In this document: positions 28,180-60,096 of the stretch, piece by piece
Layout of the letters: the number at the start of each line of letters is the position of its first letter
Numbering within the stretch: the stretch's first letter is position 1
Notes under the pieces: generated by a model
What the model was told of the DNA's origin: nothing
Database searches by the model: none
The model's input: only the letters and a program-made list of their open reading frames with translations
Made by a program: the position numbers and the translations under genes
Assembly (NCBI RefSeq): GCF_017348835.2
Contig: NZ_CP071375.1
Reading direction: 5' to 3' (one strand)
Length of the DNA: 64,000 nucleotides
Origin: Escherichia coli
GTDB taxonomy: Bacteria > Pseudomonadota > Gammaproteobacteria > Enterobacterales > Enterobacteriaceae

Positions 28180-28256
28180 GGAGCGGTAGTTCAGTCGGTT
28201 AGAATACCTGCCTGTCACGCAGGGGGTCGCGGGTTCGAGTCCCGTCCGTTCCGCCA
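28180..28256 (+). tRNA. aspV: tRNA-Asp (GTC)
   Basis: Identical in sequence to the tRNA-Asp at 19965-20041. Confidence 0.95.
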
Positions 28257-28387
28257 ATATTCAGAAAGCCCGAATCAGTAATGATTCGGGCTTTCGTCGT
28301 TTTGGTGAAGTGAGAATTTTTCACTCCGGAAGTAAAACGGATATGATTTAAAAAATGGCCAGACATTATAAATTCTGGCCACTTCTG

Positions 28388-29434
28388 TTACTCCAGCGCA
28401 TCCCATTTCTCCAGCAGTTCTACTGGAATTTCATTTATTACCTCCGAGAAGCGTTTTCCGACCAGGCGTTCTGCCTGGCGCAGCAAAGGAATGGACGGGC
28501 TGCTCGGTTCGCTGTGCTCAAACCAGCGACGGATAACACGCAGGCGTTCCAGCGCGTCGTTCCGGTCGCGGATCTGCCGGGGTTCTGCGCCGGTCATCGG
28601 TGATATTTCCTCCGAGATACGCACCGGTAGCGCAATCTGCTCTGCCTGCATCTGTTCAGTATGATCGATGGTGGCGTTCTCCGGCTGTTCAGCCTGTGGT
28701 TGTGGCAGGATCTCCGGCGTGGTGCTCTGCACTGCTCCCGGCAACAGGGCTAGCAGTTGCGTCAGACGGGAGAAGTCCGGTGCCTGGTCATTCAGCGTTT
28801 CACGCGCATGGTGTTGCAGCCGCTCAGTGGTCTCTGCTGCCTGGCGAAAGGCATCCAGCGGCAGTGTGCCGCGCGCTTCCAGGTCTGCCAGTTGCTGGCG
28901 TACCGATTCTGGTGCCAGCGCATCCGCCGGACGTAATGCAGATAGCGAACGCTCCACATCCCGTACCTGAAGGCGCATGACAGCATTATTTGACAGTGTA
29001 ATGCCACGAATATCCGCCATTACGCCTTCGTGGTCCAGCAACGCCGCCAGCGCGTTACTGCGTGCCACCGCAGCATCTTCGGCGGTGATATCTTCAGTCG
29101 CGAGCAGTTGAGGATGGATGGCGTCCGGGTACGTGGCGCACAACGTTTCCAGCAGCGTGAGCGTCTCCGCCAGTCCCCTGGCACCGGCCTGCTGGATACG
29201 GCAGCGCAGCAGGACAACCAGAATGCGGATATCTTTGCTGCGCATCAGCAGACGATGGGCGTCCCGCTCAAGCTCCGCCCAGTTAATGTTTTCAGGCGTA
29301 CTGACAAAATCGCCATATTGCGCTTCTTCACGCGGTGCGGCGCGGGTGAACAGCAGCAGGTATTCCGGATCGTACTCCAGATCCGGGCCGCAGGGGCATT
29401 CCGCCGAAATTGGGTCAGACAGGAATATTTCCAT
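28388..29434 (-). CDS. tssA: T6SS TssA-family protein (ImpA N-terminal domain)
   Basis: 348 aa; N-terminal LSDPISAECPCGPDLEYDPEYLL resembles the ImpA_N domain; adjacent to tssG/tssF. Confidence 0.55.
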   Translation of the reverse strand: MEIFLSDPISAECPCGPDLEYDPEYLLLFTRAAPREEAQYGDFVSTPENINWAELERDAHRLLMRSKDIRILVVLLRCRIQQAGARGLAETLTLLETLCATYPDAIHPQLLATEDITAEDAAVARSNALAALLDHEGVMADIRGITLSNNAVMRLQVRDVERSLSALRPADALAPESVRQQLADLEARGTLPLDAFRQAAETTERLQHHARETLNDQAPDFSRLTQLLALLPGAVQSTTPEILPQPQAEQPENATIDHTEQMQAEQIALPVRISEEISPMTGAEPRQIRDRNDALERLRVIRRWFEHSEPSSPSIPLLRQAERLVGKRFSEVINEIPVELLEKWDALE

Positions 29435-29444
29435 TTAATTATCC

Positions 29445-30473
29445 TCAGTGCGCCAGGTAGTGTTCTGGTTCGAAAATCATGCCCGTCACCGGGTTGTCGT
29501 GCATGGCTTTACCCGCCCATGCGGTCCAACCCAGTTGGTACGGACCACCGGTAACAGCCGGAGGGGCGGCGTGGGGCTTTAGCTGTAGCTCAATTTCCCA
29601 GCAGTATTCAAAACCACTAAAGGCGCGGACCAGTTCGGTCAGGACAGGCAGGTTATTGCCGCCAGGCAGAAAACGTCGGTAATCCTCCAGCGTCAGCGGG
29701 CCGATAACCAGCCGGAACTTATACTGCATGTCCGGCACGGCCTGGCCGATAAGTGCACCATTGCCAATAACGGAAGAGGGGGCAGGCATCCCCAGCCGGG
29801 TTATCTCATCGTCCGCCACGGTTATCCAGTGCAGCACATACTCTTGTATCCGGAAAGATACACCGAAATAGTGCGCCAGCGTGGTGGCCAGACCGTCCGG
29901 ATTGCGGGACTCACGCACCAGATGGGCCGATGCCGCCAGACGAGCGTGATCCGGCAACGGGCTGTCGGCACTCTCCCGCAAATCCTGCCCGCTGAGGCTG
30001 GCGACATAAAAGGCAAAGCGGTCATGTTGCGGTTTATCCAGACCGCCCCCGGCGGACTGGGCGCTGCGCCATGCCTGGTAAAACTGCGTCAGCCAGCGGT
30101 GATGAAAAAGATCAGAAAAACGGGTTAGCGTCGGGTCTCTTCGGCTTTCAGTCCGGTTGCGCGCCAGTTCGCTGTAGTGCAGCGGCAGTGGACCGTTCGG
30201 CCCCCACAGCCCGAGACTGTACAAACTGATGTGCAAGCGCTCTTCCTGCCAGCTCACACTGGCGATTTCCCGTGGCGCAAAGGTCAGCGCGGGCGTTTGT
30301 CCGAGGCGAAATTTTTCTATCCGTGGTTGCCAGGTGTTGCCCGCCGGAACGCGACACAACTGCACATCAACGCGGCGCATCAGGTTCAGAAAACCGTAAC
30401 GCCAGGGGGTTTCCTGCGCCTGAGTGAAATCGTTGCTCATACGCTTCCCCGCTGTCCCGCCCTGACAGGCCAA
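29445..30473 (-). CDS. tssG: T6SS baseplate protein TssG
   Basis: 342 aa ORF immediately downstream of tssF with overlap; size and position typical of TssG. Confidence 0.55.
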   Translation of the reverse strand: MACQGGTAGKRMSNDFTQAQETPWRYGFLNLMRRVDVQLCRVPAGNTWQPRIEKFRLGQTPALTFAPREIASVSWQEERLHISLYSLGLWGPNGPLPLHYSELARNRTESRRDPTLTRFSDLFHHRWLTQFYQAWRSAQSAGGGLDKPQHDRFAFYVASLSGQDLRESADSPLPDHARLAASAHLVRESRNPDGLATTLAHYFGVSFRIQEYVLHWITVADDEITRLGMPAPSSVIGNGALIGQAVPDMQYKFRLVIGPLTLEDYRRFLPGGNNLPVLTELVRAFSGFEYCWEIELQLKPHAAPPAVTGGPYQLGWTAWAGKAMHDNPVTGMIFEPEHYLAH

Positions 30474-32320
30474 GTCATAATTTTACCGCGCTGCATGCTG
30501 TGCAGCGTCATCTGCGAGAAGGTATTAATGGAAACATGGCGGGCGATATAGTGTTCCAGCACCAGGCCGAACAGATACGGACTGATGCCGGAAAAACCTT
30601 CTTCATCCACCGTCAGTTCACAACTGACGCCACGCCCATAGGCCAGTAGTCCGGAACCGGGCAGACGGCGGGTGACCGGGGTCGTTTTACAACCAATCAG
30701 GCTGCGCACCTGGCGCGATTGCGGACTGTCATGAGCAGGAATAAACAGGTTCAGCAGATCTCGCAACGCCTGGCCGCCGGTACGGTGATCCAGATCGGCC
30801 AGCGGCAGATAATTAAAAGATAACTGGCGGATCAACCGCCATGCCATCTCACGTTCAGCCAGCGGGGGCTGCGGCGAGCGTGGCGGGCGGATAAGCCCTA
30901 CGCCCGCCACCGGGATGGCCGCATCCACGGTTAGATCGTCCCGGCCATTGCGGGCAATAAGACAGGGCAGATCGCGGTTAGTGACCATGGCCGTGATGGT
31001 GATGTGGCGCAGATTTTCCGGGTACGGCGCTTCATACTGGTCAACCAGCGACAGGAACACTTCCGAGCCCGTATAGGGGGTACGGGTGCCGTAACGGCGG
31101 GCGTTTTCTGATAAGCGGCGGGGCTCCCGGTGCAGGGAAAAATAACGTCCGTGATTGCCTTCATCATTATTGCGGGTGTGGTAGAGCGGGCGAAAGGCCA
31201 TCTTCCGTGTGGTGTCGGTTTCCAGCCCTTCCACTTCCTGGACCGAGAACACCTCATAATCCAGCGGATGGGTTCTGTCCACCACCAGATGCTGTTCCGT
31301 CGTGCTGTGCGTGACATCGATCCGGGCGGTGACGCGGGGAAACAGGTTGATAACCGGGGTACAGAACAGGCTGAACTGTGCCGCATTTGTCTGGTGGATC
31401 AGCCAGTCCGGCGGCAGGCGGTTCAGCAGGATAACAATCTCCGCCACGCCACCGTCAATTTTCTGTAATCCGGCAGACAGGCCTGTCGGGGTGAAAAAAT
31501 AGAAGCGTTCCGGACAGGCAAAATATTCATGCAGCAGGTTATGACCGTGAAACACGTTCCACGCCAGCGGCAGCAGCCCCTGATCCGGCTCCAGGCCTTC
31601 GTACATAACGGGCTGTTGCAGATTCACATCCAGCGCGCCGTCAAAATGTCCCGGAATGCCAGCCAGGGTCGCGATGGCGCTGGTATGTAGAAGTTCTAAC
31701 AGGTGTGAGGCCGTACGCTCCTCGCCGCAGAGATAAAACGGCAGCCTATCCAGTCCTGCAAGCTGACTGAACGTTAGTTCACCAAAGGTGCGCAGGGTAA
31801 TACGCAGCGCCCCGGCGACGTGAATGTTGGCCGGCAGGTAGCGATGCAGGGCAGGCATATCCGGTGGCGCGGCGGTCAGTCGCGCCTCTTCGATGGCGAG
31901 CGGCCACAGCGTTACATCCTGGCTGCTGCGAAACTGGCAGGCAGTGCTTTCGCCTTCCGGAATGGCGGAGAAAAAGGCCGTGTCGCGCGGGACGGTAAAT
32001 CCTTTCGCCAGATCGCCTTCTTCCGTATCGGGATGCAACTGCGCCACGCTCATTGAGGGCGTGGGTGTGACGTAATTGGGGCTGACCACTTCCAGCAGGC
32101 GCTGGGTGAAACGGGGGAATTCAGCGTCAATTTTTAGCTGCGTGCGGGCGGTCAGGAAGCTGAAGGCCTCGACCATTCGCTCTACATACGGATCGGCAAT
32201 ATCCGTTCCCTGCATGCCCAGCCGGGCGGCGACTTTGGGATGACGGGCGGCAAATTCGGCTCCCGTTTCCCGCAGATAGCTTAGTTCGCGGTTGTAGTAT
32301 TCCAGTAGCCGTGGATCCAT
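30437..32320 (-). CDS. tssF: T6SS baseplate protein TssF
   Basis: 627 aa; N-terminus [36 protein letters not shown] matches the TssF (ImpG/VasA) N-terminal signature as recalled. Confidence 0.75.
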
Positions 32321-32425
32321 CGGTCTCTCTCTGAATTAAAAAAACGTAATGCGGCTCTGCTCCATATCCAGCGCGCTACGTACGCGGGTTCAGCCGTAAC
32401 CGATGTATCTGGTGCCGCCGAGGAG

Positions 32426-34591
32426 ATGGCAGAACAGGCAGCGGCGGACCTGTTTGGTGCGTTGCCGGAACCGTCAGGTCTGGTTAAAGCCGCAGTAGCT
32501 GCTGCGCAGGCTGCCGCTGCAGCAGCAGGGATCCCGGATATGGCTGGTGCAGTTCAGGATGCGGCGGCGTCGATTGCTGCCGGTGGACCGGGGGCGCATA
32601 ACGTCACAGTAAGTGGTAGTGCGGTGCCGCCGCAGCTGCTTTTGTTTGCAGGCATGAATGGTTCGGAAGGGCTTGGAAACCTGTTTTCCTACACAGTACA
32701 GCTTAAAACCCCGGATACCCTGAACCTCGGATATGTCTCCCCCGCAGCCAACCTGCCGCTCAAGCCGATGGTGGGCAAAGACCTGTGCGTCAGTATCGAA
32801 CTGGACGGCGGCGGCAAACGGCATATCAGCGGGCTGGTGACAGCGGCGCGGGTGGTGGGCTATGAGGGCCGCTCGGTAACGTATGAATTACGCCTTGAGC
32901 CGTGGCTGAAACTGCTGACCCATACCAGCGACTACAAAGCGTTCCAGAATAAAACCGTGGTGGATATTCTCGATGAAGTACTGGATGAATATTCCTTTCC
33001 GGTGGAAAAGCGGCTGGTGGAAAATTATCCACCCCGCGCCTGGCAGGTGCAGTATGGTGAAACCGACTTCGATTTCATCCAGCGCCTGATGCAGGAATGG
33101 GGGATTTACTGGTGGTTTGAGCACAGCGAGAACAGCCACACGCTGGTGCTGGCGGATGCCATCAATGGTCATAAAGCGTGCCCTGACTCGCCGCTGGTGG
33201 AGTGGCACCAGGAAGGGCTGAAACTGGACAAGGAATTTATCCACACCATTACGGCCAGTGAGAGGCTGCGTACTGGAAAGTGGGTGATGGACGATTTTGA
33301 TTTTATGAAGCCTCGTTCGCTGCTTAAAAGTACCGTGGCTAGTCCGCGTGATACCGGTCATGCTGAATACGAGCATTATGAATGGCCTGGTGATTACTTC
33401 ACTACGGGCGAAGGCGAGATGCTGACGCGCATTCGTATGGAAGCGCAGCGCAGCCCCGGCAGCCGGGCACATGGGGCAGGTCATATCCGCACCCTCATGA
33501 CGGGTTACACCTTTACGCTGATGAATCATCCAACGGCAGAGGTCAACCAGGAATACCTACTGGTACAGACCACGCTGTTTTTACGGGATAATGCGCAGCA
33601 CAGCGGTCAGGAGCAGCATTTTACCTATGTCACCACGTTTGAACTGCACCCCACCAGCGAAGTTTACCGCCCACAGCGAACCCTAAGCAAACCCCACACC
33701 AAAGGCCCGCAGAGCGCCATCGTCACCGGCCCGGCAGGGCAGGAAATCTGGACGGATAAATATGGCCGGGTGAAGGTGCAGTTTGGCTGGGACCGTTACC
33801 TGTACGATGCGGAACAGCCGTACACGCCGGTGGCCGCCATCACGGGGCGCGGAGAGAGCCGGAAAATCTGGTATTACCACACGGACCTGACGGGCACGGT
33901 ACAGGAGGTGACCGCGCCGGACGGGACGCTGGTGTGGGCGGGCTATCAGGCGGGATTTGGTGAAAACCGGGGCGACATCAGCAACAGCGGGGCGTACTTT
34001 GAGCAGCCGCTGCGGCTGCCGGGGCAGTATTATGATGAAGAGACGGGGCTGCACTATAATCTGTTCAGATATTATGCGCCGGAGTGCGGGAGGTTTATCA
34101 GTCAGGATCCGATTTCGATCCGTGGGGGGCTGAATCTTTACCGGTATGCGCCTAATCCGCTGAGATGGATTGATCCGCTTGGATTAGACTGGAATTATCA
34201 TTTAACAGATAGTGATGGTAAGGTTTATTATCATGGACGTGCAAGTGATAATGCGTCAATGGAAGATGTTGCCCGTCGTCACAGCAATACAACAGGAGCT
34301 GATAAGGCAAGATTTGGAGAAACAGATACCATGACACGAATAACTGAGCCGGGTACGCCAAAATTAACAGCACAAGGTGTGGAAGGTATTGCCATAGGTG
34401 ATAATACTATCGGGCGAAGAGCTGATAACGGTAATAGGGGTCGGGGTAATAATATTCGGGGTGTTAATCCCAATGCAACCAATGCTACTGAAAAACTAAA
34501 TGCGGGTAAAGAATTTTTAAATGGACGAATACCAAGTGAAATGACTGGTGAAACATTGACAGGTAAGGAGTATTTTGAATCAAAATGTTAA
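32426..34591 (+). CDS. Chimeric protein: VgrG N-terminal (gp27-like) region fused in frame to an Rhs C-terminal core segment and a C-terminal toxin domain
   Basis: VgrG-like up to KVQFGWDR, then [21 protein letters not shown]...[27 protein letters not shown], which is nearly identical to 38200-38586 in the downstream Rhs; then an AT-rich unique tail. Confidence 0.7.
33795..34185 (+). repeat. Rhs 3' core segment, copy inside the VgrG chimera
   Basis: Near-identical nucleotide sequence to the Rhs core 3' ends at 38200-38586, 40930-41319 and 43520-43907. Confidence 0.8.
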
Positions 34592-35463
34592 AATTAACCG
34601 ATGTAAATAAAAATGCATTAAGAATACTTAAAAAATATAACGTGCTGGCAGAAGGTGACATAATAAGAGGTCATCCATTAAGTGAGCGGGATTTGAAATA
34701 TGTTGAGGCGCATTGTATTACAACTGAAGAACGAGCCTTTTTAAATGAAAAAGGTTTGGGGTTCGGATTTATTTCTGTGACTCATGATGAAGCATTAAGA
34801 GATTCGTTTACATATTTTAAATCTTCTAATAAAAATGATGTGACAGCTTCTTTTCTGGTGAGCCTGAGTAGTGCCAGATTAGACTACAGAAGTGGATTGT
34901 CTGCATTTGCAATTATGCAAACAATGCCGATGCATGGCTTTGAACCAAATCAGGCTTCTTTTTGTAAAGTATGTTCCGCAGAAAAATATAAAAAGCATTT
35001 TGATCTAACCAGCTTAAATCAGACTCGTTTCTTTAGTGGTTCTCTAGCAGTCTTTAAAACTCCTTATGAAATTTCTTTTTTTCTGGAGCAACAATCAAAA
35101 TTGGAAGTCGTTCAGCCAACCGAAAAAGATTTCTCTATCTTTAATGCGATTTTGAAAATAATTGTTGACGCAGAATCTGGCGAAAAACTGACATCAATAA
35201 TTAAAAAAATTAGAGCGATTGATGGCTTCAGGATAACTACAGATCAGTGTCGATGTCTTCTGGAAACGCTGGGATTTTGTGGGATTCTGGAAACGAAGGA
35301 ACACAAAGGGTATCTGACTTACTTTACTAATCCTGGACTGGCTCCGAGTAAATCTCATAGTTCTAACTGGGCCTATCCGGTTGATTTCTGGACCGGAGGG
35401 GATGGAATAAATCGCGAAGCGTTAAAATTCTGGTTTGGTGAATATAAAGAAATTGTTATCTGA
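34585..35463 (+). CDS. Putative immunity protein for the chimera's C-terminal toxin
   Basis: 292 aa AT-rich ORF; start overlaps the toxin stop (ATGTTAA), which suggests translational coupling. Confidence 0.45.
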
Positions 35464-35557
35464 TTAATTATTTTATAAATTTTTAATCGAGGGACGGATG
35501 GAAATCAATGCCGGATCCCCACCAGTACTAACAGGCGAAAATCCGGGAGAACTGATC

Positions 35558-35887
35558 TTACGGTTGAATAAGATCGTCAATAAACACCGCACCGTCAACG
35601 GTACGCAACCAGCGTGGCGCTTTCAGTTTTGCCGCAAAGAACCAGACCAGTTCACAAAGCAGCCCCGTCAGGGGTTGTTCCATTTTAGATCCCTGCGCCT
35701 GTTCCGTCAGGAGCTGGAGTAATACCTCGCAATATTCACACAATTGCTCAGGATCCAGGTCAAAGTGCGGAAATGAGGCAGGCAGGTCGTCGAGTGTCAG
35801 GCTGTCTACCAGATGGGGTGGAATAGGATCGTTCAGCGTGGGAGACAGAATGGCGATACAGGCGCGAAGTCGTCCGAACAACGCCAT
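35558..35887 (-). CDS. Hypothetical protein, possibly the distal part of a frameshifted gene that starts near 36021
   Basis: 109 aa ORF; upstream on the same strand a 36-codon ORF with RBS ggaggt ends in a stop just before it. Confidence 0.2.
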   Translation of the reverse strand: MALFGRLRACIAILSPTLNDPIPPHLVDSLTLDDLPASFPHFDLDPEQLCEYCEVLLQLLTEQAQGSKMEQPLTGLLCELVWFFAAKLKAPRWLRTVDGAVFIDDLIQP

Positions 35888-36097
35888 TTTCAGCGCCGGA
35901 TCGTGACACTCTATAAGGGTTCAGCGAAGCGATCGCAGTGATCGGCCAGGTCTGTGAAATCGGTGGCAGAACTGAAAGGAATGGACAATAAATCATAATC
36001 AGGGGTGAGGACTGTAGCCATAAGGCAACCTCCGATAAGTAGGCGTTAAAACCACCACCGAAGAGACCAATCTTACGGGTGGTGGAACCGGGCGGAG

Positions 36098-38932
36098 TTG
36101 GTCTTACCGGCCTTATCGGATACCGGCGCATCTTTCGATGCCACCGCCCGGCCCACCATTGAGGTACAGCCGTGCGTGCAACACAAAAAAGACGCTGGCG
36201 CGTCATGTGTCGCCGATAAGACTTATTCAGGAGACCAATCCCGACGCCTGATTTTGCAGACGCGGCATAACGATACAACGATCGCGAAATGGCGACAAAC
36301 CCCTTTCCCGGAAGGCGGCTCGCAAAATCAGAAATATCACAGGGAAAGACAGAGCGCCGCAACGCGGCGGGATGTACCGCTTCACGTACAACGAAAACCA
36401 TTTTCCGGTAGCGGTGGAACTCCCCGGCGAACGCAGGTAACGCTGGAATACGACACCCTGAGCCGGGTGGTGAAAGAGACGGACCCGGCAGGCCGGGTGA
36501 CACAGACGCAGTGGAACGGCAGTTTTGCTGAAATCACGCGCCGGGCACTGGATGACGACCACGTATGGAAGGCGGATTACAACGAACACGGCCAGGTGAT
36601 ACGGGAGACGGACCCGGAAGGGCGCGTCACGCGCTACGGGTATGATGAACAGGGGCTGGCGGTCAGCCGCACGGATGCGCGGGGCGGCGAGGCTGCGCTG
36701 GCGCATGATGCGCGCGGCCAGCTGAGGCGTTACACCGACTGTTCAGGGCGTGCCACGGGTTATGAATACGATGAAGACGGCAACCTGACGGTGGTGACGG
36801 ACGCGGAGGGGAAAACGGTACGTATCCGCTATAACCGTCTGGGACTGCCGGAGACGGTAAATCATCCCGGTAAACAGCAGGACCGTTACACGTGGAACGC
36901 GCTGGGGTTACTGAGCAGCCACCGTCGCATCACAGGCAGTGTGCAGTCCTGGCAGTATACGCCGCGCGGTCTGCTGGCGCTCCACGTAGATGAAGAGAAA
37001 CGGGAGACGCGCTGGCATTATACCGCGGAGGGATGGATTGCCAGTCTGAGCAACGGCAACGGAGCGCTTTACCGGTTCAGTCACGATGCGGACGGACGGC
37101 TGACGGGAGAACAGCGCCCGGACGGTCTGATACGGATGTTTGTGCTGAATGCGGGCGGGTATCCGGTCATCATCCAGACGCAGGGTACAGAAGGCGGGGG
37201 GCGCAATGAACAGCAGGAGCGTGACGCGCTGGGCCGCCTGCTGCGCAGTGACACGCAGCACAGTACACGGACCTTCAGCTACAACCGTCTTGACCAGATA
37301 ACGGAAGTGACGCTCACCCCGACGAAAGAAGGGGAACGGCTGCACCACATGCAGGCGGACACGGTGCGCTTTGCGTATGACCGCAGCGGCTGGCTGACGG
37401 CAGAGCACAGCGTGCACGGCAGCATAAAATATCAGCGTGACGCGCTGGGCAATCCCACCGATATCACGTTGCCGGACGGGCAGCATCTCAGTCATCTTTA
37501 CTACGGCAGCGGACATCTGCTCCAGACGGCACTGGACGGTATCACGGTCAGCGAATATGAGCGTGACAGTCTGCACCGTCAGGTGATGCGCACGCAGGGG
37601 AAACTGGCGACGTTCAGCGGCTACAACGCCGACAACCGGTTAAGCTGGCAGCGCAGTCTGCCAGGTGGCAGCCAGAATCCACAGCAGACCGGTAACCCCC
37701 CGGCGCAGAACGACAGCGTGACGGCGCGGGACTATATCTGGAATGCGGACGGTGAGGTCGGCGGCATCAATGACAAACTGCGCGGTTGCCTGGTGTTCAG
37801 CTATGACCGCAGCGGCTGGCTGACCAGTCGCACGGGTCAGATGTACGACCATGACCATTATTATTACGACAAAGCGGGCAACCTGCTGACGGACGAGTAT
37901 CAGAGCGCGGTGATGGATAACCGCCTGCCGGGCTACGGGCGTGACCGTTACCGCTATAACGAATGGGGCGAACTGACAGAGCGCAGGGACCAGCAACTGG
38001 AGTGGAATGCGCAGGGCCAGTTAACGCGGGTCATCAGCAGCAACAGCGAGACGCGGTATCAGTATGATGCGCTGGGCAGGCGTATCAGCAAGGCGACCAG
38101 CAATCTCCATACCGACCGGGGAGAACGAAGCCGGACAACGTTTGTGTGGGAAGGGGTCCGGCTGTTGCAGGAGACAACGTGGCAGGGAAAGCGGACGTAC
38201 CTGTACGACGCGGAACAGCCGTACACGCCGGTGGCCGCCATCACCGGGCGCGGAGAGAGCCGGAAAATCTGGTATTACCACACGGACCTGACGGGCACGG
38301 TACAGGAGGTGACCGCGGCGGACGGGACGCTGGTGTGGGCGGGCTATCAGGCGGGGTTCGGAGAAAACCGGGGCGACATCAGCAACAGCGGGGCGTATTT
38401 TGAACAGCCGCTGCGGCTGCCGGGGCAGTATTATGATGAAGAGACGGGGCTGCACTATAATCTGTTCAGATATTATGCGCCGGAGTGCGGGAGGTTCGTA
38501 AGCCAGGATCCGATTTCGATCCGGGGTGGTCTGAATCTTTACCGGTATGCGCCGAATCCGATTACTTGGATCGATCCGTGGGGATTGGCAAAGGGGGATT
38601 ATGGTAAAATGCCTACGTTCCCTGGTTGGCAGAAACATCATAATATTCCACAAAATATGGCTACTCATTCGGCAATTGTTGACTCTGGATTTGATATACA
38701 TAATAGTCGTAACATTACAACCTTGCCAAAAACTGGAAGTATAGATACTGCCAGAACAGTGCACAGTGGAATGCACACAGGAGATTATGACAGGATGGTA
38801 AAAAATGCTTTAGATCAAATTGACTCGTTGAATGCTTCCCCTGAGATCAAAAAAATGCATATAGAAGCCTTATCTGATGATATTGGCAATAAATTGAGAA
38901 CAAAACAAATTACGTTAAATGCTGCATGTTGA
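36098..38932 (+). CDS. Rhs / YD-repeat protein, 5'-truncated and frameshifted near 36425, with a C-terminal toxin domain after DPWGL
   Basis: YD repeats (RYxYD, YxYDxxG); frame switch at gaacgcaggtaacgctg; core ends ...NPITWIDPWGL, followed by an AT-rich tip. Confidence 0.7.
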   Translation: MVLPALSDTGASFDATARPTIEVQPCVQHKKDAGASCVADKTYSGDQSRRLILQTRHNDTTIAKWRQTPFPEGGSQNQKYHRERQSAATRRDVPLHVQRKPFSGSGGTPRRTQVTLEYDTLSRVVKETDPAGRVTQTQWNGSFAEITRRALDDDHVWKADYNEHGQVIRETDPEGRVTRYGYDEQGLAVSRTDARGGEAALAHDARGQLRRYTDCSGRATGYEYDEDGNLTVVTDAEGKTVRIRYNRLGLPETVNHPGKQQDRYTWNALGLLSSHRRITGSVQSWQYTPRGLLALHVDEEKRETRWHYTAEGWIASLSNGNGALYRFSHDADGRLTGEQRPDGLIRMFVLNAGGYPVIIQTQGTEGGGRNEQQERDALGRLLRSDTQHSTRTFSYNRLDQITEVTLTPTKEGERLHHMQADTVRFAYDRSGWLTAEHSVHGSIKYQRDALGNPTDITLPDGQHLSHLYYGSGHLLQTALDGITVSEYERDSLHRQVMRTQGKLATFSGYNADNRLSWQRSLPGGSQNPQQTGNPPAQNDSVTARDYIWNADGEVGGINDKLRGCLVFSYDRSGWLTSRTGQMYDHDHYYYDKAGNLLTDEYQSAVMDNRLPGYGRDRYRYNEWGELTERRDQQLEWNAQGQLTRVISSNSETRYQYDALGRRISKATSNLHTDRGERSRTTFVWEGVRLLQETTWQGKRTYLYDAEQPYTPVAAITGRGESRKIWYYHTDLTGTVQEVTAADGTLVWAGYQAGFGENRGDISNSGAYFEQPLRLPGQYYDEETGLHYNLFRYYAPECGRFVSQDPISIRGGLNLYRYAPNPITWIDPWGLAKGDYGKMPTFPGWQKHHNIPQNMATHSAIVDSGFDIHNSRNITTLPKTGSIDTARTVHSGMHTGDYDRMVKNALDQIDSLNASPEIKKMHIEALSDDIGNKLRTKQITLNAAC
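36848..38586 (+). repeat. Rhs conserved core repeat, copy 1
   Basis: About 1.7 kb, near-identical to 39583-41319; 3' part near-identical to 42465-43907. Confidence 0.85.
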
Positions 38933-38947
38933 ATAACGAGGGAATAT

Positions 38948-39538
38948 ATGATTTATTTTTTATCTGATAAAAAAAATACCTTCGGGTTGTTGCATTATGA
39001 TCATAAAACTTCGATCGACTACACAGTATTTAATGAGGGGGTTAGCATAACAGGAATAGACATTAATATTAAATATACATCAAACAATAAAAATGATTTA
39101 AAACGGCTCGAAAAGTGTAACATTATAGAAACGACAGGTCCGACATTGATAAATAATAAGATTAGACATGTTTTTGAAAAATATGCAAGCAATGCGGTTG
39201 AATTTTTTGATGTAGACATTAACGATGATATAGATTTATCAAGGAAGTTTTGTGCGATTAATTTATTATGGGTCTTACCATGTTGTGATATGGAAAAGAG
39301 TGAATTTACATTAAGTAATTTCGATCTTGCCAATCCTAACTATATGTTTATGTATAAAGTTCTAAAAAATGATATTAATAGAGAGGTGGATATATTTCGG
39401 TGTAAGGAGCAGCATACTGAAATTGTTGTAAGTGAAGGAGTTAAGCAAGCATGTATGGACGCGGGAATTAAAGGATTGCGTTTTTGTACGGCTATTGATT
39501 TAACTCCAAAAAATAGATCTGAGTGTGTATTTATTTAA
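38948..39538 (+). CDS. Putative immunity protein for the toxin tip of the Rhs at 36098-38932
   Basis: 196 aa AT-rich ORF immediately after the toxin. Confidence 0.45.
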   Translation: MIYFLSDKKNTFGLLHYDHKTSIDYTVFNEGVSITGIDINIKYTSNNKNDLKRLEKCNIIETTGPTLINNKIRHVFEKYASNAVEFFDVDINDDIDLSRKFCAINLLWVLPCCDMEKSEFTLSNFDLANPNYMFMYKVLKNDINREVDIFRCKEQHTEIVVSEGVKQACMDAGIKGLRFCTAIDLTPKNRSECVFI

Positions 39539-39547
39539 TATATATGT

Positions 39548-41656
39548 ATCACGCGGTGCGGGTATGACGAACAGTTCCTGCCGGAGACGGTCAGCCACCC
39601 CGGTAAACAGCAGGACCGTTACACCTGGAACGCACTGGGGTTACTGAGCAGCCATCGTCGCATCACGGGCAGTGTGCAGTCCTGGCAGTATACGCCGCGC
39701 GGGATGCTGGCGCGCCATACGGATGAAGAGAAACGGGAGACGCGCTGGCAGTACACCCCGGAAGGGCTGGTTGCCAGTCTGAGCAACGGCAACGGAGCGC
39801 TTTACCGGTTCAGTCACGATGCGGACGGACGGCTGACGGGAGAACAGCGCCCGGACGGTCTGATACGGATGTTTGTGCTGAATGCGGGCGGGTATCCGGT
39901 CATCATCCAGACGCAGGGTACAGAAGGCGGGGGGCGCAATGAACAGCAGGAGCGTGACGCGCTGGGCCGCCTGCTGCGCAGTGACACGCAGCACAGTACA
40001 CGGACCTTCAGCTACAACCGTCTTGACCAGATAACGGAAGTGACGCTCACCCCCACGGAAGAAGGGGAACGGCTGCACCACATGCAGGCGGACACGGTGC
40101 GCTTTGCGTATGACCGCAGCGGCTGGCTGACGGCAGAGCACAGCGTGCACGGCAGCATAAAATATCAGCGTGACGCGCTGGGCAATCCCACCGACATCAC
40201 GTTACCGAACGGGCAGCACCTCAGCCATCTTTACTACGGCAGCGGGCATCTGCTCCAGACGGCACTGGACGGTATCACGGTCAGTGAATATGAGCGTGAC
40301 AGTCTGCACCGTCAGGTGATGCGCACGCAGGGGAAACTGGCGACGTTCAGCGGCTACAACGCCGACAACCGGTTAAGCTGGCAGCGCAGCCTGCCAGGTG
40401 GCAGCCAGAACCCACAGCAGGCCGGTAACCCCCCGGCGCAGAAAGACAGCGTGACAGCGCGGGATTATATCTGGAACGCAGACGGTGAAGTCGGCGGCAT
40501 CAATGACAAACTGCGCGGTTGCCTGGTGTTCAGCTATGACCGCAGCGGCTGGCTGACCAGTCGCACGGGTCAGATGTACGACCATGACCATTATTATTAC
40601 GACAAAGCGGGCAATCTGCAGACGGATGAGCATCAGGGAGCGGTGCCGGATAACCGCCTGCCGGGCTACGGGCGTGACCGCTACCGCTATAACGAATGGG
40701 GCGAACTGACAGAGCGCAGGGACCAGCAACTGGAGTGGAATACGCAGGGCCAGTTAACGCGGGTCATCAGCAGCAACAGCGAGACGCGGTATCAGTATGA
40801 TGCGCTGGGCAGGCGTATCAGCAAGGCGACCAGCAATCTCCATACCGACCGGGGAGAACGAAGCCGGACAACGTTTGTGTGGGAAGGGTTCCGGCTGTTG
40901 CAGGAGACAACGTGGCAGGGAAAGCGGACATACCTGTACGACGCGGAACAGCCGTACACGCCGGTGGCGGCCATCACGGGGCGCGGAGAGAGCCAGAAAA
41001 TCTGGTATTACCACACGGACCTGACGGGCACGGTACACGAGGTAACCGCGCCGGACGGGACGCTGGTGTGGGCGGGCTACCAGGCGGGATTTGGCGAAAA
41101 CCGGGGCGACATCAGCAACAGCGGGGCGTACTTTGAGCAGCCGCTGCGACTGCCGGGGCAGTACTTTGACGAAGAAACAGGGCTGCATTACAATCTGTTC
41201 AGGTATTATGCGCCGGAGTGCGGGAGGTTCGTAAGCCAGGATCCGATAGGGTTGCTTGGTGGGCTGAACTTATATGCTTATGCGCCTAATCCGCTGTCAT
41301 GGATCGATCCGTTAGGTTTGACTCCATGTGCAAATGGGGGGAATGCTAAAAAACATGGTGGCACAGGACATAATAATTTTATTGATAATCTTATTGCGGA
41401 TGCTCGCAGTCAGGGTGCTACAAATATCAGGAAAAACCAATGGCAGGTAGATGTTAATGGAAATGTTGTTGGTAAAAATAGACCGGATGTTCAATTTGAT
41501 TTAAATGGTAAACATTATAATATTGAGGTTGATACAACAATAAAAGGCAGCGTTGGTCACCAAAATACTATACCTACACTTGATCCCAACTCAAGAAATA
41601 CATTTTGGCTAATTGATGACTTAGGGAATATTTTAAATGGCCACTCAACCATCTGA
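39548..41656 (+). pseudogene. Orphan 5'-truncated Rhs fragment with a distinct C-terminal toxin domain
   Basis: Rhs homology starts abruptly right after the upstream immunity gene; ORF track gives 39674..41656; core ends DPLGL, then a unique tip. Confidence 0.65.
39583..41319 (+). repeat. Rhs conserved core repeat, copy 2
   Basis: Near-identical to 36848-38586. Confidence 0.85.
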
Positions 41657-42221
41657 TAATAAAAAATTAGTGTTTGCTGTAGTGAACAGTGATTTTAATG
41701 ATATAGAAAGAACTATCCATAATGGATTGAACTGGCCGAGTGAACCAATAAGTAGTCGAAAACTTATTGAGGAAATACACTTGACTATTCAACGTGGTGG
41801 GGTCTTGCCGTCCGAGGGGGTTTTCTATTATCCGTGTATAAATGACAGCAAATTAATTTTTCTGTCTAATTTATCTGATGGATGGGACTCTTTACTTTAT
41901 TGCCTGTCAAAACAGAATAAATCTAGCTATCTACTGTTTAGGTTATTGATGGGGGAATACCCTCTGATGGAAATGAGTTTTATAGAGTCAGGGAAAACAA
42001 TACGTTTAATTAGAGTGATAAAAGAAAATAAATGGATTTTTTATGAGGTCGGGGAACCGTTATGGTTTGAAGAAAAGGAAAACTATTCAAAAAGAAGAAT
42101 CGCAGATAGAATTACTTATGATCTCTTACTCTCCTATTCACGGAAAAATGGCATTGACTTTGATTCCCCCGCATTTTTTAAAACGGAAAAAGAATCACTA
42201 TGGTTGAATGAAATACGATAG
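41637..42221 (+). CDS. Putative immunity protein for the second orphan toxin
   Basis: 194 aa AT-rich ORF overlapping the toxin 3' end. Confidence 0.4.
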   Translation: MATQPSDNKKLVFAVVNSDFNDIERTIHNGLNWPSEPISSRKLIEEIHLTIQRGGVLPSEGVFYYPCINDSKLIFLSNLSDGWDSLLYCLSKQNKSSYLLFRLLMGEYPLMEMSFIESGKTIRLIRVIKENKWIFYEVGEPLWFEEKENYSKRRIADRITYDLLLSYSRKNGIDFDSPAFFKTEKESLWLNEIR

Positions 42222-42232
42222 TTTATTTAAAT

Positions 42233-42271
42233 AAAAAGCCGGAAAAGAAATTAAACTTTCCCGGCTTTTTT
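42233..42271. terminator. Bidirectional hairpin terminator
   Basis: aaaaagccggaaaag...ctttcccggctttttt; homologous to the hairpin at 44613-44650. Confidence 0.5.
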
Positions 42272-42276
42272 ATTAT

Positions 42277-42465
42277 TTAACTCTCGTTCAGCACACTAAA
42301 CATCCCGTCCCGCATCCCCTTAACTGCCTGTTTAACCTGATAAAGCTCCCTGCGCAGTTCCTGTACTTCGTTGTTATCCGCAAGCAGGATCAGACATCCC
42401 TCCGAGATCTTCACGGTAACGCCCGTGCCGATCTCAAATCCCGCTTCTCTCAGCCATTTGGCGCT
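42277..42465 (-). pseudogene. SymE-like toxin gene, 5'-truncated by the adjoining Rhs fragment
   Basis: C-terminal 60 aa AKWLREAGFEIGTGVTVKISEGCLILLADNN... resemble SymE; the upstream part of the ORF is antisense Rhs sequence. Confidence 0.5.
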
Positions 42466-43907
42466 GAATGCGGGCGGGTTTCCGGTCATCATCCAGACGC
42501 AGGGCACAGAGGGCGGGGTGCGTAATGAGCGGCAGGAGCGTGATGCGCTGGGCCGCCTGCTGCGCAGTGACACGCAGCACAGTACACGGACCTTCAGCTA
42601 CAACCGTCTTGACCAGATAACGGAAGTGACGCTCACCCCCACGGAAGAAGGGGAACGGCTGCACCACATGCAGGCGGACACGGTGCGCTTTGCGTATGAC
42701 CGCAGCGGCTGGCTGACGGCAGAGCACAGCGTGCACGGCAGCATAAAATATCAGCGTGACGCGCTGGGCAATCCCACCGACATCACGTTACCGAACGGGC
42801 AGCACCTCAGCCATCTTTACTACGGCAGCGGGCATCTGCTCCAGACGGCACTGGACGGTATCACGGTCAGTGAATATGAGCGTGACAGTCTGCACCGTCA
42901 GGTGATGCGCACGCAGGGGAAACTGGCGACGTTCAGCGGCTACAACGCCGACAACCGGTTAAGCTGGCAGCGCAGCCTGCCAGGTGGCAGCCAGAACCCA
43001 CAGCAGGCCGGTAACCCCCCGGCGCAGAAAGACAGCGTGACAGCGCGGGATTATATCTGGAACGCAGACGGTGAAGTCGGCGGCATCAATGACAAACTGC
43101 GCGGTTGCCTGGTGTTCAGCTATGACCGCAGCGGCTGGCTGACCAGTCGCACGGGTCAGATGTACGACCATGACCATTATTATTACGACAAAGCGGGCAA
43201 TCTGCAGACGGATGAGCATCAGGGAGCGGTGCCGGATAACCGCCTGCCGGGCTACGGGCGTGACCGCTACCGCTATAACGAATGGGGCGAACTGACAGAG
43301 CGCAGGGACCAGCAACTGGAGTGGAATACGCAGGGCCAGTTAACGCGGGTCATCAGCAGCAACAGCGAGACGCGGTATCAGTATGATGCGCTGGGCAGGC
43401 GTATCAGCAAGGCGACCAGCAATCTCCATACCGACCGGGGAGAACGAAGCCGGACAACGTTTGTGTGGGAAGGGTTCCGGCTGTTGCAGGAGACAACGTG
43501 GCAGGGAAAGCGGACATACCTGTACGACGCGGAACAGCCGTACACGCCGGTGGCGGCCATCACGGGGCGCGGAGAGAGCCAGAAAATCTGGTATTACCAC
43601 ACGGACCTGACGGGCACGGTACACGAGGTAACCGCGCCGGACGGGACGCTGGTGTGGGCGGGCTACCAGGCGGGATTTGGTGAAAACCGGGGCGACATCA
43701 GCAACAGCGGGGCGTACTTTGAGCAGCCGCTGCGGCTGCCGGGGCAGTATTATGATGAAGATACGGGGCTGCACTATAATCTGTTCAGATATTATGCGCC
43801 GGAGTGCGGGCGGTTTATCAGTCAGGACCCGATAGGGCTGGCGGGAGGAATAAACCTATATGCTTATGCGCCTAATCCGCTAAGTTATATTGATCCTCTT
43901 GGGCTTT
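42465..43907 (+). repeat. Rhs conserved core repeat, copy 3
   Basis: Near-identical to 37146-38586 and 39880-41319. Confidence 0.85.
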
Positions 43908-44335
43908 GTAAATTAAGGGGAAGCGATGGGCGCTACAGAAGTGCACAGAATATTCAGGAAGAAATAGGCGGCCTACCCAATTTTGCAGGAAAAACTCCAG
44001 GAGAAATACGACAAACTTTGCGTAATCGAGGTTATTCGTCGGTACAAGCGTATAGTGGAGGAGAGGTCTGGACAAAAGCATTACCTGACGGAAATACTGT
44101 TGCAGTGAGGCTTGATCCGGCAAATCCTCGCTCACCTTCACATTATGCTGATGCTGTACCTCATGCTCATATTGAAACAGTTCCAACATCCAGTGTTTCT
44201 AATGGGAATTATCGCCCGCGAGACGTGACTGGCAGGCATACTGCCACTGGTGGGGTTTCTGATCGAGGAACAAATCCGAATCATAACGCTGATGTTTACA
44301 TTCCAATGTCTCCGGGACGATTCCCATATGATTAA
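42465..44335 (+). pseudogene. Orphan 5'-truncated Rhs fragment with a third distinct C-terminal toxin domain
   Basis: Rhs homology starts at gctgaatgcgggcggg (matches 37139 in copy 1); core ends DPLGL at 43907, followed by a unique tip. Confidence 0.65.
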
Positions 44336-44346
44336 TGTGAGGTTTT

Positions 44347-44610
44347 ATGAATATCCGAAATCAATATAATGAAGCCTTAAATAAATTAGAAGTTGATGTT
44401 AATGATGGTTTGAGAGATTTAATAAACATATATTGTGTGGCTATTGATTCTTTTGAAAATGATATCGTTGACTCGATTGCTTTATACGTGATTGATATGG
44501 GAAATAAAGATACTTGTCGATATCTACAAGAAGTCTTATCAGAGAATGAAGATCCTTATTTAGTAAAAGAATTTAATGCATGGATAAAAGAAATTAAGAA
44601 AAAATATTAA
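44347..44610 (+). CDS. Putative immunity protein for the third orphan toxin
   Basis: 87 aa AT-rich acidic ORF immediately after the toxin. Confidence 0.4.
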   Translation: MNIRNQYNEALNKLEVDVNDGLRDLINIYCVAIDSFENDIVDSIALYVIDMGNKDTCRYLQEVLSENEDPYLVKEFNAWIKEIKKKY

Positions 44611-44612
44611 AA

Positions 44613-44650
44613 TAAAAGCCGGGAAGGTTATAAAATCTTCCCGGCTTTTT
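44613..44650. terminator. Bidirectional hairpin terminator
   Basis: aaaagccgggaagg...cttcccggcttttt. Confidence 0.5.
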
Positions 44651-44654
44651 ATTT

Positions 44655-44939
44655 TTAATTCTCGTTCAGTACACTAAACATCCCGTCCCGCATCCCCTTA
44701 ACCGCCTGTTTAACCTGATAAAGTTCCCTGCGCAGTTCCTGTACTTCGTTGTTATCGGCAAGCAGGATCAGGCAGCCTTCCGAGATCTTCACAGTAACGC
44801 CCGTGCCGATCGAAAATTCCGCTTCTCTCAGCCATTTGGCGCTGATTTTGATCACCGGCGTGTCGCTGCTGTTGGGCAGATATCCTACGGTACAACGGCG
44901 TTGTGTTTTGGAAATGGTGACTTCTGGCGTAATATCATG
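44655..44939 (-). CDS. SymE-like toxin homolog; no canonical ATG at the 5' end of the open frame
   Basis: The open frame reads ...RRCTVGYLPNSSDTPVIKISAKWLREAEFSIGTGVTVKISEGCLILLA..., resembling K-12 SymE (LTVSY...ITLKGQWLEAAGF...GTAVDVKVMEGCIVLTA) as recalled; ORF track starts at 44855. Confidence 0.5.
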   Translation of the reverse strand, partial: HDITPEVTISKTQRRCTVGYLPNSSDTPVIKISAKWLREAEFSIGTGVTVKISEGCLILLADNNEVQELRRELYQVKQAVKGMRDGMFSVLNEN

Positions 44940-45001
44940 TTTAAGTTAGGGGCTTTCGTAGTCATACCCCGACTCTCCCCGGCCCTAAACACAACCCCCA
45001 C

Positions 45002-45781
45002 TCACCACAACCTAAACTCATCCGCATCCTGCCATGCCGGAAACTTTTCTCTATATTCCCGCAATGCCATCATCGACAGCTCCGCATCAATGCGCGTTGC
45101 CTGATGCGCGTCGGCAGTAGCGATAATCTCGCCTTGTGGATTAATCACCCGGCTGTCACCGCGATAATGGCAGCCGTTGCCATCGCTGCCGACGCGATTG
45201 CATCCCGCCACATACGCCTGATTCTCAATCGCGCGGGCCGTCAGCAATGCCTGCCAGTGCAGAGAGCGCGGAGCAGGCCAGTTGGCGACGTACAGGGCGA
45301 GGTCATAATCGTTGAGATTGCGCGACCACACAGGAAAACGTAAGTCGTAGCACACCAGCGGCAAAATACGCCAGCCGCGCCATTCCACAATCACTCGCGC
45401 ATTGCCCGCTTTATAATGCAGATGCTCATCAGCCATTCGGAACAGATGACGCTTATCATAAAAATGTACCGTGCCGCCCGGCTCAACCAGCAAAAAGCGG
45501 TTAACTGAACCAGACTCCGTTTGTAATGCAACACTGCCTGCAATCAGCGCATTGCACTGCTGCGCTTTAGCTGTCATCCAGTTCACTACGTCATCTTGCG
45601 CTAGCGACGAAGCTGCCGCTTCCATGGCAAAGCCGCTGGTAAACATCTCCGGTAGAACGATCACATCGCGCCCGGTAATACCTTCCAGTTGACGATCAAA
45701 ATGACGCAGGTTGGCAGGACCATCCATCCACACCAGTGGTTGCTGCAAAAGCGTAATCTTCAAACCAGGCACGGTGTACAA
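45002..45781 (-). CDS. yafV: Omega-amidase YafV (nitrilase superfamily)
   Basis: 259 aa C-N hydrolase family ORF; synteny with ivy. Confidence 0.8.
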   Translation of the reverse strand: MYTVPGLKITLLQQPLVWMDGPANLRHFDRQLEGITGRDVIVLPEMFTSGFAMEAAASSLAQDDVVNWMTAKAQQCNALIAGSVALQTESGSVNRFLLVEPGGTVHFYDKRHLFRMADEHLHYKAGNARVIVEWRGWRILPLVCYDLRFPVWSRNLNDYDLALYVANWPAPRSLHWQALLTARAIENQAYVAGCNRVGSDGNGCHYRGDSRVINPQGEIIATADAHQATRIDAELSMMALREYREKFPAWQDADEFRLW

Positions 45782-53100: not shown

Positions 53101-53457
53101 TTACATCTGGGCTGAAAACTCACGTTCTAAGACATCAACAATGAGCTGGTTTTTTGAAATGGAATGTTGTCTGGCGACGATGGTCAGCCGCGAATCAATG
53201 TGATGAGGAACACGAAGCGTCAGGCGTTTTTGCTCTTCTTCTTCACGAAAAGGGGCAATACCGTCCTCTTCACAATCCGCCATCCACTCATCCAGCGCGC
53301 TTTCGCCCTCACGATATAATGCCTCAATGCTTGTGGCTACAAAGTCACAATAACCGTTTACATTGAGGAATTTGCCGCGAAATGCATTGATATCGGCTTC
53401 AAATGTCACTGCGGCTGGTTGACCTTTAATTGTGATAATGTTCGATGCTTTATTCAT
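53101..53457 (-). CDS. HicB-like antitoxin (N-terminal HicB fold plus C-terminal RHH)
   Basis: 118 aa; C-terminus LTLRVPHHIDSRLTIVARQHSISKNQLIVDVLEREF looks like an RHH DNA-binding domain; overlaps the upstream ORF by 8 nt. Confidence 0.45.
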   Translation of the reverse strand: MNKASNIITIKGQPAAVTFEADINAFRGKFLNVNGYCDFVATSIEALYREGESALDEWMADCEEDGIAPFREEEEQKRLTLRVPHHIDSRLTIVARQHSISKNQLIVDVLEREFSAQM

Positions 53458-53749: not shown

Positions 53750-53832
53750 TGTATGGTGTCATCGTAGTATGTTTGCAATGTGACGTCAATCAATGGTGTC
53801 AGATGCATGCAAAGCATGGAAAAGAATCCCCA

Positions 53833-55572: not shown

Positions 55573-55574
55573 TA

Positions 55575-58786: not shown

Positions 58787-58828
58787 TGAACCGCCCCGGG
58801 TTTCCTGGAGAGTGTTTTATCTGTGAAC

Positions 58829-60042: not shown

Positions 60043-60096
60043 CCTGTTTACCTCTTTCTCAGGGAGTTTAGTCTCCAGGATTTCCGGGGCGGTTCA

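Follow-up and report, generated by a model that had tools for sequence, protein, structure and literature searches.

How did pieces of a type VI secretion system (T6SS) and an array of Rhs toxin and immunity genes come to lie between the tRNA-Asp gene aspV and yafV in an Escherichia coli chromosome, and what was the system before its reduction? The stretch analyzed here (the window, 64 kb) is 100% identical to the chromosome of E. coli PE164 (record NZ_CP114128.1), whose source is a pig in China. The island at this site is very probably what remains of a T6SS of the SPI-6 (Salmonella pathogenicity island 6) type, subclass i3, disarmed by two deletions with its toxin/immunity cassettes kept. 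A first-pass annotation of the same DNA had proposed a decayed T6SS and a toxin/immunity array at aspV, unable on their own to build a T6SS, and this description holds, since the core genes are absent. The genes that it had named, namely tssF, tssG, a TssA-family gene, a VgrG-derived gene and Rhs modules, were recovered with NCBIfam and in the Prokaryotic Genome Annotation Pipeline (PGAP) annotation of the identical record, and its SymE-like genes as profile matches below the cut-off. No tssB/C, hcp, tssJ/K/L/M or tssH was detected across the whole window, and no T6SS core genes adjoin the island beyond its limits within it. Coordinates of all features are collected in Table 1.

Anatomy of the island and its two deletions

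The T6SS core set (13 genes: tssA-M, hcp, vgrG) is incomplete, being represented only by a tssA-like gene, tssF, tssG, 52 nt of tssE and a fragment of vgrG. The region is a T6SS remnant and not a functional member of subclass i3. The tssA-like gene, tssG and tssF carry two to three amino-acid changes each relative to the intact cluster of strain PapRG-06-5 (three for the TssA/ImpA-family protein) and no internal stops, and tssF is now cut off from the genes that preceded it in the operon and from the promoter region on the tagK side. A 94-nt "tRNA-His" called by ARAGORN within tssF (30561-30654, minus strand) is a false positive; it has no Rfam tRNA match, and ARAGORN repeats the call within the tssF gene of a different Escherichia species.

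PapRG-06-5 (NZ_CP048605.1, 2040000-2089000) bears a complete cluster between aspV and yafV. It starts with tssA-tssG-tssF-tssE-tagJ-tagK and continues with the divergent tssH, tssB, tssC, tae4, tai4, hcp, tssJ, tssK, tssL, tssM, tagF and vgrG, after which come a DcrB/Eag-type chaperone gene, a 4,125-nt rhs gene with its immunity gene, and orphan rhs modules. OZ197100, GF3-3, XJ34 and 14EC033 were rejected as intact references, each being decayed in its own way, and a complete cluster was first encountered in PapRG-06-5. In many E. coli genomes the match to the island begins at aspV and stops at 32387, beyond which tssE continues, and the vgrG-like segment (32387-33799) matches the vgrG located ~23 kb farther along in the tssE-bearing genomes.

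Comparison with PapRG-06-5 resolved two junctions. At the first one (32387), the last 52 nt of tssE are joined to nt 97 of vgrG with a microhomology of 2-3 bp, and 23,138 bp are missing, a deletion that runs from the tssE side to the first 96 nt of vgrG and took away tagJ, tagK, tssH, tssBC, tae4/tai4, hcp, tssJKLM and tagF. At the second one (33797-33799), a TAC microhomology links nt 1509 of vgrG with main-rhs nt 3364, and the 4,556 bp missing comprise the 3' end of vgrG, the gene for the Eag-type chaperone and the initial 3,363 nt of the main rhs. The retained DNA is 99.7% identical to PapRG-06-5 over 4,145 bp and 99.0% over 1,413 bp. The vgrG fragment has lost the N-terminal 32 aa and the C-terminal spike/adaptor part. 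Reading through the second junction, an open reading frame (ORF) that starts at an internal ATG combines VgrG residues 46-503, the end of an Rhs core (33797-34186) and the toxin tip CT1. The earlier claim of three Rhs modules therefore stands for the presence of Rhs but not for the count, which is four, the VgrG-derived gene being fused in frame to the fourth core end and tip. The 61-mers of the two junctions were recovered without any change in F2_81, a complete genome that comes from a pig in Australia and was assembled independently, so the deletions are not assembly errors. Two deletions at microhomologies account for the anatomy of the island.

Table 1. Position and identification of the features in and beside the aspV-yafV island (window coordinates).
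Feature	Position	Strand	Identification or remark
tRNA-Asp (aspV)	28180..28256	+	ARAGORN; Rfam tRNA 67.7 bits
Island relative to the empty aspV-yafV site	28303..45014		16,712 bp; alignment to AVS0717
TssA/ImpA-family gene	28388..29434	-	348 aa, full length; TIGR03363 E-value 2.5e-43, below curated cut-off; PGAP "ImpA family"
tssG	29445..30440	-	331 aa, full length; TIGR03347 327.9 bits, above cut-off
tssF	30437..32320	-	627 aa, full length; TIGR03359 618 bits
tssE remnant	32336..32387	-	last 52 nt; ends at deletion junction 1
vgrG fragment	32387..33799	+	codons 33-503 of 737, stop-free; TIGR03361 355.8 bits
Chimeric VgrG'-Rhs-toxin ORF	32426..34591	+	721 aa; in-frame fusion at junction 2
P2-like promoter, module 1	34032..34060	+	ATGATG-17-TATAAT
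Tip CT1 (module 1, fused)	34187-34591	+	no known family
imm1, candidate immunity gene	34585..35463	+	overlaps CT1 stop by 7 nt; no known family
Phage/satellite-type RNA control module	35558..36276	-	between imm1 and orphan rhs 2, inside the Rhs array
ORF downstream of C4 RNA	35558-36021	-	frameshifted here; 154 aa and intact in PapRG-06-5
C4 antisense RNA	36075-36163	-	full length; Rfam 70.6 bits, gathering score 45
isrK / a1b1-target element	36185-36276	-	Rfam isrK 65.8 bits, gathering score 50
Orphan rhs 2	36364..38932	+	homology from main rhs nt 1529
Tip CT2	38588-38932	+	AHH-type HNH/EndoVII nuclease; Pfam AHH E-value 4e-14
imm2, Imm11-family immunity protein	38948..39538	+	Pfam Imm11 E-value 2e-11; PGAP
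Orphan rhs 3	39578..41656	+	homology from main rhs nt 2011
Tip CT3	41321-41656	+	no known family
imm3, candidate immunity gene	41637..42221	+	overlaps toxin gene 3' end by 20 nt
SymE-like gene, 5'-truncated	42277..42467	-	ORF 42277-42492; homology cut at ~42467 by rhs4 fragment
Orphan rhs 4	42463..44335	+	homology from main rhs nt 2310
Tip CT4	43907-44335	+	no known family
imm4, candidate immunity gene	44347..44610	+	followed by terminator hairpin 44614-44649
SymE-like gene, full length	44655..44918	-	conserved right end of island
yafV	45002-45772	-	PGAP annotation

Type of the secretion system

Concerning the type of the lost system, protein comparisons made with the intact reference cluster lead us to assign the island to a Salmonella SPI-6-like system of subclass i3 and not to T6SS-2, the usual E. 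coli system at aspV. The Tae4 of PapRG-06-5 matches PDB entries 4J30, 4HFF and 4JUR over its full length (E-value = 5e-94), which we take to be Salmonella Typhimurium Tae4. Its TssC reaches 803 bits against PDB 5N8N, presumably the Pseudomonas aeruginosa H1 sheath, archetype of subclass i3, and ~375 bits against VipB of Vibrio cholerae. The same TssC is 42% identical to both the T6SS-1 (metV-type) and the T6SS-2 TssC of LF82, and the reference TssF presents 26-28% identity with the two LF82 TssF proteins (26% for T6SS-2) and 60% with TssF of Paraburkholderia and the Burkholderia group. Identities of 26-42%, together with the different gene order in LF82, rule out T6SS-2 as the island type; the subclasses compared directly were T6SS-1 (i2) and T6SS-2 (i1). 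A TssF peptide-pattern scan of reference genomes (one genome per species) did not return Salmonella, and the link to SPI-6 consequently rests on the Tae4 matches in PDB and on the literature, which places SPI-6 of Salmonella at aspV (PMC2907695). A 2025 survey of 131,610 genomes assigned three T6SS subclasses to E. coli, i1, i2 and i4b (PMC12282107). We found no description of an i3 cluster of E. coli in the open-access literature, which is offered as a lead and not as a priority claim, and the existence of such a cluster in this species is the only point that may be under-described.

Island limits, distribution and age

The limits of the island were set against AVS0717, an empty-site reference in which aspV and yafV are ~100 bp apart. 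Homology to AVS0717 ends at 28302, i.e., 46 bp beyond the tRNA and past its terminator hairpin, and restarts at 45015. The size of about 16.7 kb between aspV and yafV given by the first-pass annotation was right, and the empty-site comparison refines its exact limits to those of Table 1. The final 13 bases of yafV (45002-45014; four codons and the stop) differ between island-bearing strains and AVS0717, so the 3' end of yafV is supplied by the island's right end. As the first-pass annotation had also reported, there is no sign of an integrase or of a duplicated tRNA 3' end: PGAP annotates no integrase gene in the island, and the 25-mer of the tRNA 3' end, searched with up to three mismatches, occurs only in the two tRNA-Asp genes and not at the right boundary.

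Among 5,426 complete E. coli genomes, over which all counts were taken, some part of the aspV-proximal tssA-G-F block is present in 178, at least 80% of this block in 126, and at least 80% of the 23-kb core missing from PE164 in 108, which places an i3 T6SS at aspV in ~2-3% of complete E. coli genomes (108-178). At least 80% of the whole island is found in two genomes, PE164 and F2_81. This gene content is hence not a universal ancestral arrangement: besides its restriction to two genomes, the slot is empty in other strains, and in LF82 (NC_011993.1, 240000-277000) it is occupied by a T6SS of an unrelated subclass. This one site has received T6SSs of different types, as in the Salmonella reports.

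The order tssH / tagK-tagJ-tssE-tssF-tssG-tssA - tRNA-Asp - dnaQ was also recovered by the TssF scan in cryptic Escherichia clades and in Citrobacter amalonaticus, and because it is common to them the insertion must be old. Relatives in Enterobacter (90% identity) are sited elsewhere in their genomes. The view of an "old, eroded" island is accordingly right for the insertion and wrong for the erosion. The latter was recent and proceeded by discrete deletions, as indicated by flanks that are 99.0-99.7% identical to the intact island, by full-length, stop-free tss genes and by the fact that only two genomes share the junctions.

Similar losses were found in other lineages. In GF3-3, tssF is fused to an rhs fragment; in XJ34, it is a truncated tssH that is fused to one; 14EC033 has an IS2 element in the tssH region and has lost everything up to the rhs array; OZ197100 carries a mercury and antibiotic resistance region bounded by IS1/IS26 and inserted in tagK; ETEC1717 and strain I3 break within the tssA-like gene. 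Outside E. coli, Citrobacter sp. R56 has a tssE stub adjoining three Rhs core ends and a SymE-like gene. The core was thus lost or broken independently, with different breakpoints (GF3-3, XJ34, 14EC033, OZ197100, Citrobacter sp. R56), and the Rhs-tip/immunity array was kept each time. In Salmonella, an internal SPI-6 deletion of ~15 kb in Saintpaul SARA29 and ImpA-like leftover ORFs in several serovars have been reported (PMC2907695).

The Rhs toxin/immunity array

Four Rhs core ends were identified, each with an intact PxxxxDPxGL motif and a tip of its own (111-142 aa), which a small ORF either overlaps or closely follows. No toxin or immunity ORF in the four pairs is interrupted. G+C content falls from ~60% in the Rhs cores to 33-39% in the tip/immunity segments (37.6% for CT1 and imm1). 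TIGR01643 (YD repeats) and TIGR03696 (RHS-associated core) are matched above their cut-offs, and the scores for NF041261 in the Rhs copies are far under its cut-off of 2000. Relative to the 4,125-nt main rhs, module 1 is homologous only from nt 3364 onwards and modules 2-4 from the nucleotides given in Table 1, so none of the copies has the VgrG-loading part; the N-terminal PAAR/loading region and a full shell are absent in all four. By analogy with known arrays, the four truncated cassettes fit the classic orphan pattern, in which older tips are displaced by incoming ones.

Concerning the cargo, only the second pair belongs to described families. CT1, CT3, CT4, imm1, imm3 and imm4 gave no Pfam, NCBIfam or PHROG match, and the three tips no PDB sequence match. 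The motif RPDV...IEVDT had suggested a PD-(D/E)xK nuclease for CT3, but this idea found no support. The CT1-imm1 pair occurs in two of the genomes surveyed and the CT3-imm3 pair in three, and the CT4/imm4 region is 99.9% identical to 14EC033. The hairpin behind imm4 is a bidirectional terminator with a 16-bp stem, common to imm4 and the SymE-like gene at the right end.

The cores of rhs3 and rhs4 are 97.7% identical over 1.4 kb. F2_81 lacks 2,138 bp (window 40558-42694), comprising the rhs3 core end, CT3, imm3, the truncated symE and the start of the rhs4 fragment, and its crossover falls in a 23-bp overlap within the rhs3/rhs4 cores. The array is therefore still recombining, F2_81 having lost this segment via homologous recombination between the two cores.

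Promoter-like sites within the cassettes

Salmonella transcribes its rhs tips and immunity genes from P2, an internal promoter with a start site 89 nt upstream of the PxxxxDPxGL-coding sequence; P2 has been reported in E. coli too, and orphan rhs cassettes of Salmonella are expressed and functional (PMC7043789). A P2-like site is present in each of the four cassettes. Apart from that of module 1 (Table 1), the equivalent sites end at 38461, 41194 (TTGACG-17-TACAAT) and 43780. One of the four was flagged by a consensus promoter scan and the other three were located by alignment. The distance from the end of the TATAAT/TACAAT hexamer to the downstream PxxxxDPxGL-coding sequence is 96 nt in all four cassettes, and a start would accordingly be expected ~7 nt past the hexamer, at -89, as in Salmonella. 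Expression of the toxin/immunity cassettes may thus persist via these P2-like sites.

C4/isrK module, SymE-like genes and antisense RNAs

A phage/satellite-type RNA control module lies inside the Rhs array. In addition to the full-length C4 RNA and the isrK element, the c4-a1b1 model reaches 40.2 bits, slightly under its gathering score of 46.7. For the ORF that follows the C4 RNA, neither NCBIfam nor PHROG gave a match. A stretch of C4/isrK with 76% identity is found in B19695 beside an integrase remnant at thrW, with AbiE and a defence reverse transcriptase nearby, and ~445 E. coli genomes contain similar copies. The module has the appearance of a fragment captured from the immunity region of a phage or satellite.

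Both SymE-like genes were examined together with their opposite strand. The profile matches are to NF010128 for the full-length copy (E-value = 3.7e-11, 42.9 bits, cut-off 132) and, partially, to Pfam SymE_toxin (E-value = 2e-6), and the orthologues in F2_81 and 14EC033 are named SymE family by PGAP. The truncated copy marks a former end of the array. On the plus strand opposite the two genes (44477-44918 and 42219-42534), partial matches to the Ssr1 model were detected (E-values 7e-71 and 6e-41). These partial Ssr1 matches amount to 150-248 bits (gathering score 820), and partial isrA matches to 28-36 bits (gathering score 51). We take STM0294.1n/STM0295 to lie just past the Salmonella rhs genes. 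For IsrA, cis-antisense pairing with the 5' end of STM0294.1n (7.0 min on the Salmonella map) has been proven (PMC2330248), and the mapped position of Ssr1, called Shigella-specific, is the Shigella flexneri interval flanked by an Rhs-family gene and yafV (PMC4782007). The Ssr1-homologous stretch over the SymE-like ORF suggests a type I toxin/antisense pair, and both Ssr1 and IsrA may be SymR-like RNAs paired with a SymE-like toxin that sits where SPI-6-type Rhs arrays end. SymE genes beside Rhs or Hcp loci have also been noted in Erwinia and Pantoea.

Surroundings of the island

Besides core genes, the remainder of the window contains small toxin-antitoxin pairs, what is left of a lateral-flagella locus, an IS3 and genes for a prophage tail. 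The lateral-flagella (Flag-2) remnant at 53101-56302 retains lafU and an N-terminally truncated flhA, adjoins a hicA/hicB toxin-antitoxin pair and has dinJ-yafQ close to it. From 58196 to 64000, a truncated prfH and rtcB are followed by an IS3-family element and then by prophage tail-fibre, Lom and tail-tip genes up to the end of the window.

Origin of the remnant and alternative explanations

The delivery of toxins by this locus is impossible, since it has lost the apparatus genes and the chaperone gene, its VgrG is incomplete on both sides and the Rhs copies have no N-terminal loading region. This bears directly on whether the locus could be a working auxiliary effector module (vgrG-rhs-immunity) feeding a T6SS located elsewhere in the genome. 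Auxiliary vgrG-eagR-rhs islands are known in E. coli (bioRxiv 10.1101/2024.03.05.583533), and the PxxxxDPxGL motif and the reading frames are intact in all four tips. However, VgrG is without codons 1-32 and 504-737, the chaperone gene and all Rhs N-terminal regions have been lost, and no other sheath gene was found on the PE164 chromosome in a megablast search with tssC of three types. Specifically, a chimeric query combining the PE164 tssF with tssC of T6SS-1, T6SS-2 and i3 hit one place in PE164 and in F2_81 (tssF itself) and three in the control PapRG-06-5, and such a module is very improbable here. An assembly artefact, with the truncated arrangement produced by collapse over repeated Rhs/vgrG sequence, might be envisaged because the Rhs cores form long, near-identical repeats, rhs3 and rhs4 being the example given above. 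Both junctions, though, lie in unique sequence (tssE/vgrG and vgrG/rhs) with simple microhomology and recur exactly in a genome from another continent, which makes this explanation practically negligible. Insertion of a separate integrative island at the tRNA by site-specific recombination, with later loss of its integrase, is quite improbable as well. The island does adjoin a tRNA gene, and integrase-bearing elements use aspV, one of them beside the T6SS of PapRG-06-5. Against it stand the missing integrase and tRNA 3' repeat, a start 46 bp past the tRNA and beyond its terminator hairpin, and a position and orientation common across genera; SPI-20 of Salmonella, at aspV, is likewise without flanking repeats (PMC2907695).

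The remnant of an SPI-6/i3 T6SS, disarmed by two deletions with its cassettes kept, is then the explanation that we favor. Under it, an SPI-6/i3-type cluster would have been long resident in the aspV-yafV interval of part of Escherichia and Citrobacter, and two illegitimate-recombination deletions at 2-3 bp of microhomology would have disarmed it in the common ancestor of PE164 and F2_81. Transcription of the cassettes would continue from a conserved internal promoter, the counterpart of P2 in Salmonella, and the strain would keep immunity to these toxins, i.e., protection against armed relatives, with the costly apparatus lost; alternatively, the cassettes might persist as toxin-antitoxin-like selfish modules. 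Whether anything maintains them is the less secure part. They may be neutral debris awaiting deletion, with neither expression nor benefit, which we consider a serious though less likely possibility. Debris would fit the recent date of the deletions, the cassette already missing from F2_81 and the frameshift in the ORF downstream of the C4 RNA. On the other side, the four toxin and four immunity ORFs are open with a P2-like -10 at the same distance in each, Salmonella orphans are expressed and functional (PMC7043789), and independent core deletions in at least five E. coli lineages and Citrobacter sp. R56 spare the Rhs-tip/immunity array. The same repeated deletions also spare the P2-like promoters and the terminal SymE-like/antisense pair. 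Only tentatively, and with the odds against it, do we go as far as proposing that the remnant is a selected "disarmed but immune" state with expressed cassettes and that i3 at aspV is a fourth T6SS subclass of E. coli. Several points weigh against our explanation as a whole. The order of the two deletions, or whether there was a single event, cannot be told from two sister genomes; the tssC megablast covered the chromosome and would miss a divergent system (e.g., i4b) or a plasmid-borne one; the activity of the three unmatched toxin/immunity pairs is predicted from context alone; the -35 hexamers are weak (ATGATG) in three of the four P2-like sites; and P2-driven expression is read from sequence only.

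Comparison with known systems

The closest precedent may be SPI-6 of Salmonella (Blondel et al. 2009, PMC2907695), with which the island shares the tRNA-Asp site, the Tae4/Tai4-containing gene set of the intact reference, a variable Rhs region after vgrG, decayed forms with internal deletions and ImpA-like leftovers, and possibly an IsrA-type antisense RNA over a small gene. It differs in its E. coli host, in having no saf/tcf fimbrial operons, and in its lineage-specific breakpoints and in-frame VgrG'-Rhs ORF. The T6SS-2 / pathogenicity island (PAI) I of E. coli (LF82, enteroaggregative strain 042 Ec042-0210-0226 and enterohaemorrhagic strains) occupies exactly the same aspV-yafV slot, also without classical att repeats, but its TssC and TssF are only 42 and 26% identical, its gene order is another one, and it has TagH/FHA and several hcp genes.

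The orphan rhs-CT/rhsI cassettes of Salmonella Typhimurium (PMC7043789) are likewise 5'-truncated copies downstream of a main rhs, and the position of their core promoter matches all four cassettes here. In PE164, however, the main rhs and the apparatus are gone, and since the main rhs is gone its orphans cannot be reactivated by recombination with an adjacent full-length rhs. The SF0268-Ssr1-yafV region of Shigella flexneri 2a (PMC4782007) lies at the same place beside yafV, with the partial Ssr1 match already described. There Ssr1 is an intergenic small RNA (sRNA) considered exclusive to Shigella, whereas the stretch found here overlaps a SymE-like ORF and scores 248 bits against a gathering score of 820. 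Finally, the c4 region of phages P1/P7, isrK of Gifsy-1 and the "ash" regions of P4-like satellites share full-length C4 and isrK matches and the order targets - C4 - ORF, but the module here is placed within an Rhs array and not in a phage or satellite, and its downstream ORF belongs to no family and is frameshifted.

Significance

Every element of the locus has a close precedent, from T6SS islands at aspV and their internal deletions to orphan rhs cassettes and P2; this is ordinary genome decay and no new mechanism is needed. What the island adds for an SPI-6-type T6SS in E. coli is the documentation of exact breakpoints and of the order of events, from an old insertion through recent deletions to a still-recombining array. 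Surveys limited to i1, i2 and i4b will undercount the T6SS history of E. coli. Two published "orphan" sRNAs, Ssr1 of Shigella and IsrA of Salmonella, can be tied through their partial matches to one conserved feature, the opposite strand of the SymE-like gene that closes an Rhs array. The repeated retention of cassettes with a conserved internal promoter offers a natural test case for whether immunity-only strains are favored.

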